From assembly GCA_016875225.1 (NCBI GenBank), contig VGRW01000005.1, positions 2,936 through 66,935 of the forward strand: 64,000 nt of DNA, written 5' to 3'. The position numbers and the translations under genes are program-made. This DNA comes from Deltaproteobacteria bacterium (GTDB lineage Bacteria; Myxococcota_A; UBA9160; SZUA-336). The notes beneath the pieces were generated by a model. It was not told the DNA's origin. It made no database searches and worked only from the letters and a program-made list of their open reading frames with translations. This document shows positions 18,203 through 42,357 of the stretch, in pieces (within the stretch, counting starts at the first letter, position 1; each line of letters opens with the position of its first letter).

Positions 18203-18938
18203 CGCAACCGGGCTGCTGCTCTCGGGCTGCGTGCTGGTCGAGTGGATCGGCGGCCCGGCTCCGGCGTCGAAGCCGGCCCTCGACGCAGATCTGGTGCAGC
18301 GCGGCGCAGCCCTGTTCGCGGATCGGAGGCTCTCCGGCGACGGCACGCGAAGCTGCGCCAGCTGCCATCCGGGCGGCGGCGAGGATCGCAAGGTCTACTT
18401 GGACGGAGAGAGCGTCGAGCCGGGCACGCCCGGAGGCCTGCGCACGCCGAGCCTGCGCGGGCTCTGGCAGACGGCGCCCTACCTCTGGGATGGCTCGGCG
18501 ACGACGCTTCGGGCTGCGACGGACCGAATGCTCGCGCTAGAGATGCGCGGCGGGTCGCTGTCGGGCCGGGACGCGGACGCCCTCGAGTCCTATCTGCTCT
18601 CGCTTGCGCCCTTCGATCGCGGTCGCATCCAGCCCGATGGAGCGCCCGTCGAGCCGGTGAACCTGACCGCGCGAAAGGGGTTCGCGGTCTTCGCCGAGGC
18701 GGGCTGCGCGGACTGCCACCCAGCGCCCGCGTTCGCGCGCGCGCGGACGAGCGACGTGGGTACGGGTGGTCGGTTCTCGGTCCCGACGCTGCGCGGCGTG
18801 GCGACGCGCGGCCCCTGGGGTCACGACGGGCGGTTTGCGGATCTGGAGTCGGCCGTTCGCGCCGTCGCGGCCGGAAGCGGCGTCGAGCTCGGAAGCGACC
18901 AGATGTCCCAGCTGCTGGCCTACCTCGCGCTCCTGTAG
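18180..18938 (+). CDS. di-heme cytochrome c peroxidase-family lipoprotein (CCP/MauG-like, short form)
   Basis: Lipobox signal MRSWLALSATGLLLSGC. Two CxxCH motifs (CASCH, CADCH). 252 aa. The start overlaps the acyl-CoA synthetase 3' end by 23 nt. Confidence 0.75.
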   Translation: MRSWLALSATGLLLSGCVLVEWIGGPAPASKPALDADLVQRGAALFADRRLSGDGTRSCASCHPGGGEDRKVYLDGESVEPGTPGGLRTPSLRGLWQTAPYLWDGSATTLRAATDRMLALEMRGGSLSGRDADALESYLLSLAPFDRGRIQPDGAPVEPVNLTARKGFAVFAEAGCADCHPAPAFARARTSDVGTGGRFSVPTLRGVATRGPWGHDGRFADLESAVRAVAAGSGVELGSDQMSQLLAYLALL

Positions 18939-18981
18939 CAGCCGCGCGCGGGTCCGGTTAGTGTTCTGCGCCCGCGAGTCT

Positions 18982-21442
<2,461 letters not shown>

Positions 21443-39099: not shown

Positions 39100-39309
39100 T
39101 CAGTGCTGGGCGGCGTCGCCCTCGAGGTCGGGTGCGACGTAGCCGGCCGCGACCTCGCGCAGCGCGTTCACGACTGCCTTGTTCTCGGTCGTCTTCACCA
39201 GCCCGCGAGCTCCCCGCATGATCTGCTTGGCCCGGACAGAGACCATGACGACCAGGGCGAATCGGTTTCCCGCCCGCTCGGTGCAGTCCTCGATCGTGAT
39301 TCTGGCCAA
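39100..39309 (-). CDS. rpoZ: DNA-directed RNA polymerase subunit omega
   Basis: 69 aa: MARITIEDCTERAGNRFALVVMVSVRAKQIMRG. Confidence 0.9.
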   Translation of the reverse strand: MARITIEDCTERAGNRFALVVMVSVRAKQIMRGARGLVKTTENKAVVNALREVAAGYVAPDLEGDAAQH

Positions 39310-39361: not shown

Positions 39362-39403
39362 GCAAGAAAGAAGAAGCCCCCGTCGCTTCGCAGCGACGGG
39401 GGC
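39362..39403 (-). terminator. putative intrinsic terminator after the 40-aa basic micro-ORF
   Basis: Minus-strand RNA: GCCCCCGUCGC-UGCGAA-GCGACGGGGGC (11-bp GC stem) followed by UUCUUCUUUCUU. Confidence 0.5.
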
Positions 39404-39429
39404 CTTCTATGGAATCAGAATGCGAGGCC

Positions 39430-39552
39430 TCAGACGGCCTTCTTGCGGCGGCGTGTGGCCTTCTTACGGCCAGCCTTCTTCTTTCCGCCCTTCTTCGCAC
39501 CCTTCTTCCGCCGCGTTGCCTTCTTGCTCGCGGCTTTCTTCCGAGCTGCCAT
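39430..39552 (-). CDS. 40-aa extremely basic Lys/Arg/Ala-rich micro-protein (histone-H1-like / nucleoid- or ribosome-associated candidate)
   Basis: ATG preceded by GGGGGTGAGAG (RBS-like). Translation MAARKKAASKKATRRKKGAKKGGKKKAGRKKATRRRKKAV. Hairpin terminator immediately downstream. Below the 60-aa cutoff of the ORF track. Confidence 0.45.
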   Translation of the reverse strand: MAARKKAASKKATRRKKGAKKGGKKKAGRKKATRRRKKAV

Positions 39553-39799
39553 TTGCTCTCACCCCCATTTGCGTTTTTGTTCACCGTGCTCGCGTTGCGA
39601 CCGCTCCGCTTGCGCTTCGGGGAGCAATTCGTGCACGACCGAGAGGACCCTGATTTGCGATTCCTCTCGCGTCACGTATCGGACTCGATCTTCCGAACTT
39701 GACGCGAGCACCGTTGTTTCACGTCTGGAAACGCGCGGTTCCCGTTCTCGGTTGCGCACACAGTAAGCATTGAGCGGCGAAAGTGTCAACGGAAGCGCC

Positions 39800-39836
39800 A
39801 AAAAAAACGCACCGATGTGTTCCATCGGTGCGTTTG
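39800..39836 (-). terminator. strong rho-independent terminator (acts on minus strand; A8 on plus / U8 on minus)
   Basis: Plus strand AAAAAAAA-ACGCACCGATG-TGTTC-CATCGGTGCGT-TT, a perfect 11-bp stem. On the minus strand it is followed by 8 U, directly downstream of the bS22-like ORF. Confidence 0.75.
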
Positions 39837-39870: not shown

Positions 39871-39966
39871 TCAGCGCTTGTTGCGCTTGTGTCTCTGCTT
39901 CGCGCGAAGCTTCTTGTACTTGTGCTTGCGCATCTTCTTGCGCCGCTTCTTGATCACGCTGCCCAC
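39871..39966 (-). CDS. bS22-like ribosomal micro-protein candidate (31 aa)
   Basis: GTG-initiated ORF translating (M)[30 protein letters not shown]. Near-identical in pattern to mycobacterial bS22 ([21 protein letters not shown]...). GGAGG lies ~12 nt upstream, and a strong terminator follows. Confidence 0.55.
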   Translation of the reverse strand: [31 protein letters not shown]

Positions 39967-40024
39967 GGAAAACCCGGCCTCCACCGTCGAGTGGCGGCCG
40001 AAGTTATCCGTGGGAGGGTGCTTG

Positions 40025-40516
40025 TCAAGCACCCTGCGCGCGAGAGAGCACCCAGGCCGCGCGTCCGAGCATGCGCGCCTGGACTCGCCCGAGCAGCCGA
40101 TTCAGGGCATGCCCGCGCGGCAGGAAGCGGATCGGCGGCCTGCGCCGGATGCCGAGATCGGCGAGGCGCTTGTGCACCGACGCGTTTTCGGGATCCACCA
40201 TCAGCGCCCTGCGCAGGAAGCGGATCGCGTCGGCCTTGAAGTCGAACGCCAGATAGATGCGGGCGAGGTTCTGATAGAGGTCCGGGTTGTAGAACTCCTG
40301 CCGCACCGCGGCACGCGCCAGCTCCACCCCGCCGAGGAACTGACCGCGCACGAGCGCGAGCGCGAGCGCATACGAGGAGCGGAAGCGCGCGTTCTGCGGG
40401 TCGATCAGATAGGCGCGAGAGAGGTGCTCGAACGCCTCGTGGCCGTGACCGGCCTCGAGAAGCGCGAAGCCGCGGCGATGGTGTTCTTCGGGCGTGAACT
40501 CGGTCTTCTGCTGCAT
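40025..40516 (-). CDS. small TPR-repeat protein
   Basis: 163 aa: MQQKTEFTPEEHHRRGFALLEAGHGHEAFEHLSRAYLIDPQNA...YQNLARIYLAFDFKADAIRFLRRALMVDPENA (TPR-like helices). It is the C-terminal in-frame tail of a longer junk ORF. ATG at 40516 with AGGTGG upstream. Confidence 0.7.
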   Translation of the reverse strand: MQQKTEFTPEEHHRRGFALLEAGHGHEAFEHLSRAYLIDPQNARFRSSYALALALVRGQFLGGVELARAAVRQEFYNPDLYQNLARIYLAFDFKADAIRFLRRALMVDPENASVHKRLADLGIRRRPPIRFLPRGHALNRLLGRVQARMLGRAAWVLSRAQGA

Positions 40517-40620
40517 GGGGTCTGCCACCTGTTCCCTTCTGCCCCCCTGAGCGCCCTTATCGGCCGCGGGAGCCGCCAGATGAGTGGCGCAAGCGACGCC
40601 GCGAACGCGGCCAGGGCTGC

Positions 40621-42357
40621 CTACGCGCGAAGAGGCAGGCGCACCACGAACTCGACCGTTCCGGCGAAGGGAAGCTCCGCCCAGGCGCGGCCGCCGTGCA
40701 GCTCGGCGATCGCGCGGACCAGGTTCAGCCCCAGCCCGACACCGCCATACTTCCTGGAGTACGAGCCATCGCGTTGCACGAAGCGCGCGAAGATCCGTTC
40801 GAGATCCTGCGGGCCGAGCTCGTGGGACGGATTGCGCACGCGAAGTTCGACGGCTTGGTCGTCGTGACCGGTGGAGACCCTCACCCGCGCGCCTCGCTGG
40901 CTGAACTTCAGCGAGTTCTCCAGCAGGTTCAGGACCACCTGCTTGATCCGGTCCGGGTCGAGCTCGGCGAGCGGCAAGGCGGGGTCGAGCGCCAGATCGA
41001 CCGCGAAGCCCGCCTCGTCGAGTCTCGGCTTCAGGATCTGAAGGCATTCGTGGACGATCGCTCCGAGCGCGGCCGGCCGTCGCGCGAGCGCGACACCGCC
41101 TGCCTCGATGTTCGAGAGCTCGAGCAGGCCGCGGATCAGCTCGGTCATGCGGGAAGCCTCGCGCTCGACCAGGCCGAGAAACTCCGCACGCTGGACGGTG
41201 GAGAGCCGCGCTCCCCCGGCGATCTCGGCCGCGACGTCCCTGCGAAGCAGCGTCGCGAATCCCTTGATGCTGGTGAGCGGCGTCGTGAGCTCGTGGCTGA
41301 CGTTGGCGAGGAACTCGGATTTCATCCGATCGGAGTCCACGATCCGCTCGTTCTGCAGTCGCAGCTGCTCGTTGCGCTCGCCGAGCTCTCGCTCCAGACG
41401 CAGCCGCTCCGTCACGTCGCGCGCGATGCACACCAGCGAGTTCGAGCTCGCGGAGACGCGAGCCGAGACCTCGATCGTCGCCGATCCGCTGCGCGTGCGC
41501 GCCTCGAGGCGGATGCCGCTCAGCGCGCCGACCTCGAAGAGCCGCGGCACCAGCTGCCGGATCACGTCCCACGAGGCATCGTCGAGCAGCCCCTGCACGG
41601 ACTGTCCGCGCAGCTCGGCGAGGCTCATCGAGGTGAAGCGCAGCGCGGCGCGGTTCGCGTCCAGAACCATCAGCTGGCGATCGAAGACCAGGATGATGTC
41701 CGGCACTTCGTCCATGAAACGGCGGACGCGCTGCAGGTCGTGCAGGTCGGCGACCCCGTCGCTTGGCTCCGTACCTCCTCGCTCGACCGCTTCGCGTCCT
41801 TCGAGCTCGGCTTGCAGCAGGCTCGCCTCGCGCAGCGCACGCTCGTGTCGAACGTCGCGACAGGGAATCCAGCCCTTCACTTCGAAACAGCAGCGACTGC
41901 CGCCGTCGCTGCTGCACTCGACCTGAGAGACCACCACCGGCTCCTCGCCGGAGCAGCTCGACAGGAGCGAGCGCATGGCGCCGAGACGGAACTCGCACTC
42001 GCTGACCTCGGTCGGGAAGCCGGGCTCGTTGGTCCAGAACAGTCGCGCGTCGCGCTCTCCAGAGCGGACCTCCACGCTCGAGTGCCGGTCGAGGAACCGC
42101 GCCCAGATCGGGAGTTCGGCCAGGAGGACGCTGGGATCCTGAGCGAGCTCGGCGAACGCCCGCAGCCAGGGCTCGGCGACCTCCCAGACGCGCATGCCTG
42201 CGGTGAACGCGTTGTCGCGCTCCGCGAAGATCTCGAGCAGCTCCGCGCGCGGGATCCAGAGCGCCCGAACCGCGCGCTCTTCGACGCTTGGCGCGCCCGT
42301 GACCCCGCCCTTGATCGCGACCTGGAACAGCGCACTGCGACGAGCGCGCTCGCTCAC
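40621..42357 (-). CDS. cytoplasmic sensor histidine kinase with N-terminal Cys-rich V4R-like domain and PAS domain
   Basis: N-terminal EVSECEFRLGAMRSLLSSCSGEEPVVVSQVECSSDGGSRCCFEVKGW (4-vinyl-reductase-like). PAS region. Intact H box ANVSHELTTPLTSIKG. HATPase N/G boxes LLENSLKFS, GGVGLGLNLV. Confidence 0.9.
   Translation of the reverse strand: MSERARRSALFQVAIKGGVTGAPSVEERAVRALWIPRAELLEIFAERDNAFTAGMRVWEVAEPWLRAFAELAQDPSVLLAELPIWARFLDRHSSVEVRSGERDARLFWTNEPGFPTEVSECEFRLGAMRSLLSSCSGEEPVVVSQVECSSDGGSRCCFEVKGWIPCRDVRHERALREASLLQAELEGREAVERGGTEPSDGVADLHDLQRVRRFMDEVPDIILVFDRQLMVLDANRAALRFTSMSLAELRGQSVQGLLDDASWDVIRQLVPRLFEVGALSGIRLEARTRSGSATIEVSARVSASSNSLVCIARDVTERLRLERELGERNEQLRLQNERIVDSDRMKSEFLANVSHELTTPLTSIKGFATLLRRDVAAEIAGGARLSTVQRAEFLGLVEREASRMTELIRGLLELSNIEAGGVALARRPAALGAIVHECLQILKPRLDEAGFAVDLALDPALPLAELDPDRIKQVVLNLLENSLKFSQRGARVRVSTGHDDQAVELRVRNPSHELGPQDLERIFARFVQRDGSYSRKYGGVGLGLNLVRAIAELHGGRAWAELPFAGTVEFVVRLPLRA

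Follow-up and report, generated by a model that had tools for sequence, protein, structure and literature searches.

This locus raises the question of whether a minus-strand open reading frame (ORF) of only 31 codons is a gene and, if it is, what its product does. The window, meaning the whole stretch of DNA that was analysed, is 64,000 nucleotides from an uncultured soil bacterium of Myxococcota type, a MAG deposited as Deltaproteobacteria bacterium [GenBank accession VGRW01000005.1, positions 2,936 to 66,935]. A short ORF alone carries no meaning. Read on the minus strand from 39966 to 39871, this one is GTG GGC AGC GTG ATC AAG AAG ... AAG CGC TGA, and 18 of the 31 residues of the predicted product are Lys or Arg (11 Lys, 7 Arg). 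An earlier note on this DNA had described these codons as a bS22-like ribosomal micro-protein gene with a strong terminator of its own, invisible to ORF finders with a 60-aa cutoff. Direct reading of the sequence returned exactly the same coordinates and translation, and in the mechanical ORF list the frame appears solely as a 53-aa GTG ORF (39871..40032), visible only at a cutoff reduced to 25 aa.

The ORF proves to be a genuine gene, strongly conserved and coding for a micro-protein of 31 residues. It stands beyond chance because the peptide matches a curated family above threshold, because the match survives a shuffle control, and because the frame is kept in every testable related locus. 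The product is very probably a micro-protein of the bS22 / AURKAIP1-COX24 (PF08213) family, expressed from its own transcription unit and most likely inserted in the 30S subunit. The features on which the following sections draw are listed here, the two promoter boxes having been called on conservation.

39100..39309, minus: rpoZ, downstream of a 40-aa ORF
39800..39835, minus: putative intrinsic terminator (hairpin and U8), 35 nt past the stop codon of the micro-protein gene
39871..39966, minus: coding sequence for the bS22 / PF08213-type micro-protein, GTG start, 31 codons, TGA stop
39978..39982, minus: Shine-Dalgarno sequence GGAGG, 11 nt before the start codon, kept in close relatives
40001..40006, minus: predicted -10 box TAACTT, 16 nt past the -35 box
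40023..40028, minus: predicted -35 box TTGACA, overlapping the TGA stop codon (40027..40025) of the upstream 163-aa TPR gene
40025..40516, minus: TPR protein of 163 aa, from gene calls in related contigs and Pfam
40621..42357, minus: PAS/HisKA/HATPase histidine kinase of 578 aa, from gene calls in related contigs and Pfam, in a frame other than that of an overlapping 657-aa ORF

Homologues in the databases were sought with the in-frame 53-aa extension (39874-40032, minus) as the query. Gene calls on 13 public contigs include the identical protein, and all 13 share the gene order thrC, glpX, ribE, khpA, histidine kinase, TPR (163 aa), micro-ORF, 40-aa ORF and rpoZ. The synonymous-only differences seen in the ORF among the identical-protein contigs L001-L010 carry no weight because these contigs were retrieved by protein identity, which makes the comparison circular, and they were discarded as evidence.

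An independent test was made in which metagenome contigs were searched with no query other than the protein of the upstream TPR gene (40028-40516, minus). This gave 32 loci, in which the TPR protein ranges from 94% down to 51% identity, and one of them (L049) was left out as it has just 81 nt of sequence past the TPR gene. An intact ORF of 30-32 aa is present in all of the remaining loci (31/31), with TPR identity as low as 69%. It sits 46-139 nt after the TPR gene in 30 of them, and L042 also carries it intact. All lineage relatives of the window locus are from metagenomes or MAGs. The first 28 codons occur in 24 distinct nucleotide versions among the TPR-retrieved loci, with 9, 4 and 21 variable sites at codon positions 1, 2 and 3, respectively, and in one locus the Ser3 codon has changed from AGC to TCG with Ser retained. 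The mean pairwise pN/pS is ~0.12, a figure that is descriptive and not a formal test because the sequences are related to one another. On this pattern the reading frame is under purifying selection. The earlier note had asked whether it is the ORF, as opposed to the nucleotide sequence, that is conserved at syntenic loci, and the coding signature found there, with variation falling mostly at third codon positions, answers in favour of the ORF.

The start codon can be placed in the same way. The start is GTG in close TPR-linked loci, and in distant ones this codon is ATG. Some database proteins are called from further upstream; their N-terminal extensions are unlike one another, and in the alignment conservation begins abruptly at (M/V/L)GSVIKK. 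Because GTG and ATG share one codon and conservation sets in exactly there, the start is assigned to the GTG at 39966, as had been proposed.

Against Pfam, the peptide gave a single match, to PF08213 (COX24_C, AURKAIP1/COX24 domain, formerly DUF1713), at 32.8 bits (E = 6.2e-8) compared with a gathering score of 23, which is the Pfam threshold for membership. Residues 1-30 align with positions 1-30 of the 33 in the profile, and PF08213 is precomputed for 22 of the 22 database relatives. The sole NCBIfam match was NF047430 (ribo_bS22, '30S ribosomal protein bS22') at 30.7 bits (E = 2.5e-7), aligned over 1-30 of 31, and here the window protein falls 3.3 bits short of the equivalog cutoff of 34 bits. 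The search with bS22 profiles that had been suggested as a check thus places the protein in the Pfam family but does not give it the equivalog name. The same suggestion had treated RpsV as a synonym of bS22, which is a conflation. E. coli RpsV/Sra ('S22') is an unrelated 45-aa stationary-phase protein, and the Pfam and NCBIfam searches at E <= 10 gave only ribo_bS22 and COX24_C.

In a phmmer search of PDB chain sequences, the peptide aligned end to end (residues 1-30) with ribosome-bound bS22 from Mycobacterium (22 entries) and from Cutibacterium acnes. Identity to M. smegmatis bS22 is 18/30, including residues 1-10 and Lys16. The window protein has the size (30-33 residues), the strongly basic composition, the N-terminal motif and the Lys16 of bS22. 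The K6-K16 stretch is invariant among relatives within the lineage, and the C-terminal half is unlike the LLRRTRVQRRK of actinobacteria.

A composition control was run because query and profile are both rich in Lys and Arg. The profile used was built from nine out-of-lineage sequences, seven of them ORFs of named genomes in other phyla and the other two PDB chains. Against it the window peptide reached 45.5 bits, and none of 2000 shuffles of the peptide, which averaged -5.9 bits (sd 3.2), exceeded 13.0. The K-rich 40-aa ORF next to the gene, included as a control, scored -11.5 bits. Since shuffles reach at most 13.0 bits compared with 45.5, the match depends on the order of the residues and not on Lys/Arg composition. 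AlphaFold2, run on a 22-sequence alignment, predicted one helix over residues 3-30 with a pLDDT of 90; a lone helix fits bS22 and is not diagnostic. Foldseek of the predicted helix against the PDB gave no match. The bS22-like identity that had been recognised in the sequence is upheld by the PF08213 score above threshold, the alignment with bS22 in the PDB, the shuffle control and the independent conservation.

Among known systems, the bS22 proteins of M. smegmatis and M. tuberculosis (MSMEG_0945 and Rv0550B; PDB 5O5J, 5O61, 5XYU and others) and of C. acnes (8CRX) belong to the same Pfam family, PF08213. The window protein is 31 aa compared with 33 aa in mycobacterial bS22, and both are extremely basic. 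They have an identical N-terminus and share Met12, Lys14, Lys16, Lys19 and Leu20, but differ in the C-terminal half, which is LRRTRVQRRKLGK in actinobacterial bS22. The hosts of MSMEG_0945 and 8CRX are actinobacteria, whereas the window protein belongs to a Myxococcota-type MAG and is known from sequence alone.

A protein with a sequence nearly identical to that of the window protein is recorded in GenBank as 'AURKAIP1/COX24 domain-containing protein' [Desulfomonilaceae bacterium] [accession numbers HTY21957.1 and MGO9118812.1]. It is 29 aa long rather than 31 and scores 30.3 bits against NF047430. This is also under the cutoff of 34, which explains its generic name, and the same name is predicted for the window protein. 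The Desulfomonilaceae (Thermodesulfobacteriota) belong to a phylum other than that of the window, though likewise to a former 'deltaproteobacterial' lineage.

Two further bS22 proteins, from Borrelia burgdorferi (bb0822) and Flavobacterium johnsoniae (Fjoh_1533), are like the window protein in having ~30 aa and ~60% Lys/Arg. The B. burgdorferi gene was unannotated and has a GUG start (PMC10618245), so that the annotation problem is the same as that of the window gene. Both are structural counterparts with divergent sequence, and both are absent from the phmmer matches to PDB sequences at E <= 10, whereas the window protein is of the actinobacterial/PF08213 sequence type. The C-terminal domain of mitochondrial mS38 (AURKAIP1 / yeast Cox24) is also in the same Pfam family, and PDB chains of mS38 are weak phmmer matches to the window peptide (E = 0.012 to 6). 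In published structures mS38 occupies the position of bS22 at h44/h45 (PMC10618245, PMC10081302). Eukaryotic mS38 carries N-terminal extensions that bring it to ~110-200 aa or more, and cytosolic eL41 is a single unbent helix of ~25 aa.

From the function of homologous bS22 proteins (PMC10081302, PMC10618245, PMC10085706) we infer that the window protein is translated and incorporated into the ribosome. By homology with the solved bS22 structures, it would insert into a 30S pocket formed by helices h2, h27, h44 and h45 of 16S rRNA, beside the decoding centre, where its Lys and Arg side chains would contact the rRNA backbone, and it would make an extra inter-subunit contact with 23S rRNA. Lys16, which is conserved in the window protein, contacts the backbone of h44 in M. 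smegmatis; bS22 is non-essential in that species and its deletion raises sensitivity to aminoglycosides (PMC10081302).

It is unlikely that the peptide is real, translated and of the PF08213 family and yet not a stoichiometric ribosomal protein, serving instead as a nucleic-acid-binding protein, a nucleoid or transcription factor, or a secreted cationic antimicrobial peptide. The missed equivalog cutoff of NF047430 would fit such a role, as would conservation of the gene beside a Lys/Arg-repeat, histone-H1-like small ORF and rpoZ, and the bS22 of C. acnes, made synthetically, inhibits the growth of bacteria in vitro (PMC10085706). However, the N-terminal 20 residues, which are those that contact h44/h45 in the structures, are nearly identical to ribosome-bound bS22, Lys16 included, and neither a signal peptide nor an export gene is present. 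The neighbouring genes have promoters and terminators of their own, and their linkage therefore implies no co-function. Moreover, the synteny is lineage-specific, the TPR/rpoZ neighbourhood being absent from the relatives in named genomes of other phyla among the matches listed. Insertion in the 30S subunit remains the preferred reading.

The small ORF next to the micro-protein gene lies between its terminator and rpoZ (39430..39552, minus) and encodes a 40-aa product rich in Lys, Arg and Ala (MAARKKAASKKATRRKKGAKKGGKKKAGRKKATRRRKKAV). Its position is kept in most of the related loci that have sequence there (L019-L048). Its length is 35-40 aa in close relatives, and in the distant loci L041 and L043-L046 it extends to 80-130 aa made up of (A/G)(T/R)RKK pentapeptide repeats. 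A Pfam search with the 40-aa ORF gave no match, and the long forms have sub-threshold histone-H1-like matches (HC2, 13.3 bits; hist_H1_lk_Burk, 19 bits). The product may be a small nucleoid-associated protein. Sub-threshold Rfam matches (ctRNA_p42d at 28.7 bits, and others) cluster on the minus strand at 39362..39408, in the gap that separates the 40-aa ORF from rpoZ, and most likely represent one more hairpin of terminator type, in which case the 40-aa ORF would form its own unit, apart from rpoZ.

The lineage has, side by side, three genes for very basic small proteins, namely the bS22-like protein, the histone-H1-like protein with Lys/Arg pentapeptide repeats, and RpoZ. With this in mind, the (K/R)xRHKR subtype found in Myxococcota-labelled and Desulfomonilaceae MAGs might be viewed as a functionally shifted clade acting on the nucleoid or RNA polymerase beside or instead of the ribosome, a view given only a slight chance of being right. 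The bS22-like and histone-H1-like genes each show a conserved promoter and hairpin of their own. A weaker form of this view is that the subtype could be the first bS22 of a Pseudomonadati 'delta' lineage and, if that is true, the set of bacteria in which the ancestry of mitochondrial mS38 might be sought would grow.

As a bS22-type protein of the 30S subunit, the product would be made from a short unit of its own. This unit would consist of a sigma-70-type promoter, a ~28-nt leader with GGAGG, the GTG start, 31 codons and an intrinsic terminator, giving an mRNA of ~200 nt. In the window, the spacer between the TPR gene and the ORF is 58 nt and holds TTGACA-N16-TAACTT, which is probably the sigma-70-type promoter of the micro-ORF, with transcription predicted from the -10 box to start near 39994. 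TTGAC is invariant in an alignment of 25 distinct upstream spacers. The -10 box takes several forms in related loci (TAACTT, TAACAT, TATCTT, TACCAT and TACTCT), with T1, A2 and T6 kept, and the spacing is always 16 nt. TTGACA-N16-TAnnnT is kept in all of the related loci, even where the end of the TPR gene differs and the remainder of the spacer has diverged. A generic promoter scan reported no site at the micro-ORF promoter because the -10 box matches the consensus at only 3 of 6 positions, and the promoter call is therefore made on conservation only.

Leaders differ among the loci. In L043 and L045, an ATG is located only 9 nt past the -10 box (TAACAT CCCGCGCCA ATG), and the bS22-type mRNA would thus be essentially leaderless there, compared with the GGAGG leader of the window. 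A hairpin that sequesters the Shine-Dalgarno sequence was considered, but the predicted folds of the 5' UTR differ between loci and no such structure is proposed.

Downstream of the stop codon, a perfect 11-bp stem is formed by ACGCACCGATG (39833..39823) paired with CATCGGTGCGT (39817..39807) across a 5-nt loop. Two A-U pairs bring the stem to 13 pairs, 7 of them G-C (39835..39805), and eight T's are found at 39807..39800. A hairpin with a run of at least 7 T's is present 40-65 nt past the stop codon in 28/30 related loci with sequence there. L044 differs in its stem and has a T-tract ~89 nt past the stop that is weaker and interrupted, and in L042 the first 160 nt past the stop hold no T-run. 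The loops of the terminator vary; two pairs are changed in a compensatory way in L039, and one pair is G-U in L043. The element hence combines the G+C-rich hairpin, U-tract and conserved pairing expected of an intrinsic terminator, and is probably one. The perfect 11-bp hairpin and U8 that had been described as a strong terminator of this gene are confirmed in the sequence, and a hairpin with a U-tract is conserved in nearly all related loci.

The stem itself (CGCACCGATG/CATCGGTGCG; 39807..39833, minus) is almost invariant in loci where the TPR protein is ~70% identical, and the loop and flanks vary freely. On this comparison, conservation of the stem sequence exceeds what terminator pairing alone needs. 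A search of Rfam at the micro-ORF locus gave no match, even at E <= 1.

A second predicted promoter, TTGACA (39789..39784)-N18-TACTGT (39765..39760), is found on the minus strand directly past the U-tract of the micro-ORF. It is nearly invariant, reading CCGTTGACAC ... CTTACTGT in almost every related locus, and would leave a 5' leader of ~200 nt (39553..39753) ahead of the 40-aa ORF, in which Rfam found no family at E <= 1. Given a promoter and terminator of its own and this second promoter past the U-tract, the micro-ORF would be a self-contained monocistronic unit of ~200 nt and not a leader peptide of rpoZ.

A short ORF followed by a strong hairpin and U-tract, on the same strand and upstream of more genes, is also the arrangement of an attenuator, in which translation of a regulatory leader peptide or uORF would set how often transcription runs through the hairpin and, with it, how strongly the 40-aa ORF and rpoZ are expressed. 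This is very improbable here. The hairpin lies 35 nt past the stop codon in the window and at a varying distance in other loci, and with a separation this long and variable translating ribosomes could not modulate it. Alternative anti-terminator pairing was not seen, the folds of the 5' UTR are inconsistent between loci, and the nearly invariant TTGACA-N18-TACTGT sequence would serve the downstream unit. Likewise, strong purifying selection on the peptide, and a family that spans phyla in unrelated contexts, argue against an attenuator.

High-GC genomes hold many spurious ORFs, the peptide is of low complexity, and tblastn against plasmids and phages gave no match (uninformative, with the low-complexity filter as the probable cause). 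On these grounds the ORF could be a chance one, lying within a small RNA, a long TPR 3' UTR or some other conserved non-coding element and matching the family through its AAG/CGC Lys/Arg composition. This reading has next to no probability. It is effectively refuted by the shuffle control (at most 13 bits compared with 45.5) and the codon-position pattern, in which variation is dominated by third positions and a six-fold-degenerate Ser codon is switched in one locus, and is further opposed by start and stop positions conserved across phyla and by the lack of an Rfam match at E <= 1.

As a coding gene of the bS22 family, the window gene can be set against the known range of such proteins. Ribosome structures show bS22 in Actinobacteria (Mycobacterium and C. 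acnes), in Bacteroidota (F. johnsoniae and Porphyromonas gingivalis) and in B. burgdorferi, and the authors of the B. burgdorferi structure predicted bS22 in more bacteria (PMC10618245). A genome-contig search found at least 8 loci of other phyla. Among the matches listed, seven named genomes have intact ORFs of 30-31 aa with ATG, GTG or TTG starts, and these are MAGs of Anaerolineales, Anaerolineae, Chloroflexota, Dehalococcoidales, Acidimicrobiia, a member of the Bifidobacteriaceae and another 'Deltaproteobacteria bacterium' MAG. On NF047430, the score is 58.5 bits for the ORF of the 'Deltaproteobacteria' MAG, 42.5 for that of Acidimicrobiia and 40.7 for that of Anaerolineales, all three above 34. 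A literature search for a link between bS22 and Myxococcota, Deltaproteobacteria or Chloroflexi returned no relevant paper, and one for the assembly accessions returned none either.

The earlier note had suggested that the gene would extend the known range of bS22 if the genome is as proteobacterial as it otherwise looks. The look of the genome fits the old 'Deltaproteobacteria' label. In the close relative at locus L004 (GCA_040902485.1), RpoZ carries the label 'Myxococcota bacterium', and NCBIfam names for ten large proteins of the window were all of housekeeping type, with no marker of lineage among them. The extension is valid with respect to the structural literature (Actinobacteria, Bacteroidota and Borrelia) but not with respect to the sequence databases, which already hold such proteins. 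At the sequence level, bS22-type proteins range well past the three phyla with structures and are found in Myxococcota-type, Thermodesulfobacteriota and Chloroflexota genomes. The window gene is an ordinary member of a family that Pfam and NCBI already recognise in neighbouring lineages, and it leaves the understanding of that family unchanged.

The description of the gene as unannotated likewise holds in part. The identical protein is called on the 13 public contigs described above, and the gene is missed on two Logan contigs that carry the exact RpoZ of the window. A 31-codon, GTG-initiated gene of ribosomal type is thus called on some assemblies of the lineage and missed on others, and NF047430 narrowly fails to name the subtype, which is left with a generic name. 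In a clustered protein collection, neither the 31-aa nor the 40-aa peptide had an exact match. The RpoZ, CarB, homoserine dehydrogenase and GlmM of the window are identical to GenBank proteins MBM4334770, MBM4334782, MBM4334778 and MBM4334744, respectively. Seven accession numbers fall between those of RpoZ and homoserine dehydrogenase, compared with six ordinary genes and two micro-ORFs in the window, and the source record may therefore include one additional small CDS.

Two observations concern other parts of the window. The first involves thiC, a gene that often has a TPP riboswitch ahead of it.

19193..21442, plus: thiC ORF, with the ThiC domain from about residue 179

Rfam at E <= 1 found no TPP riboswitch ahead of this ORF (18900..19900, plus), the only match being a tRNA-Met at 18981..19058, and thiC here has either a divergent leader or a different regulation. 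The second concerns the 657-aa ORF at 40025..41998 on the minus strand, upstream of the micro-protein gene. This ORF was rejected as a high-G+C artefact, as gene calls in related contigs and Pfam show that other genes, those for the TPR protein and the histidine kinase, occupy the region.
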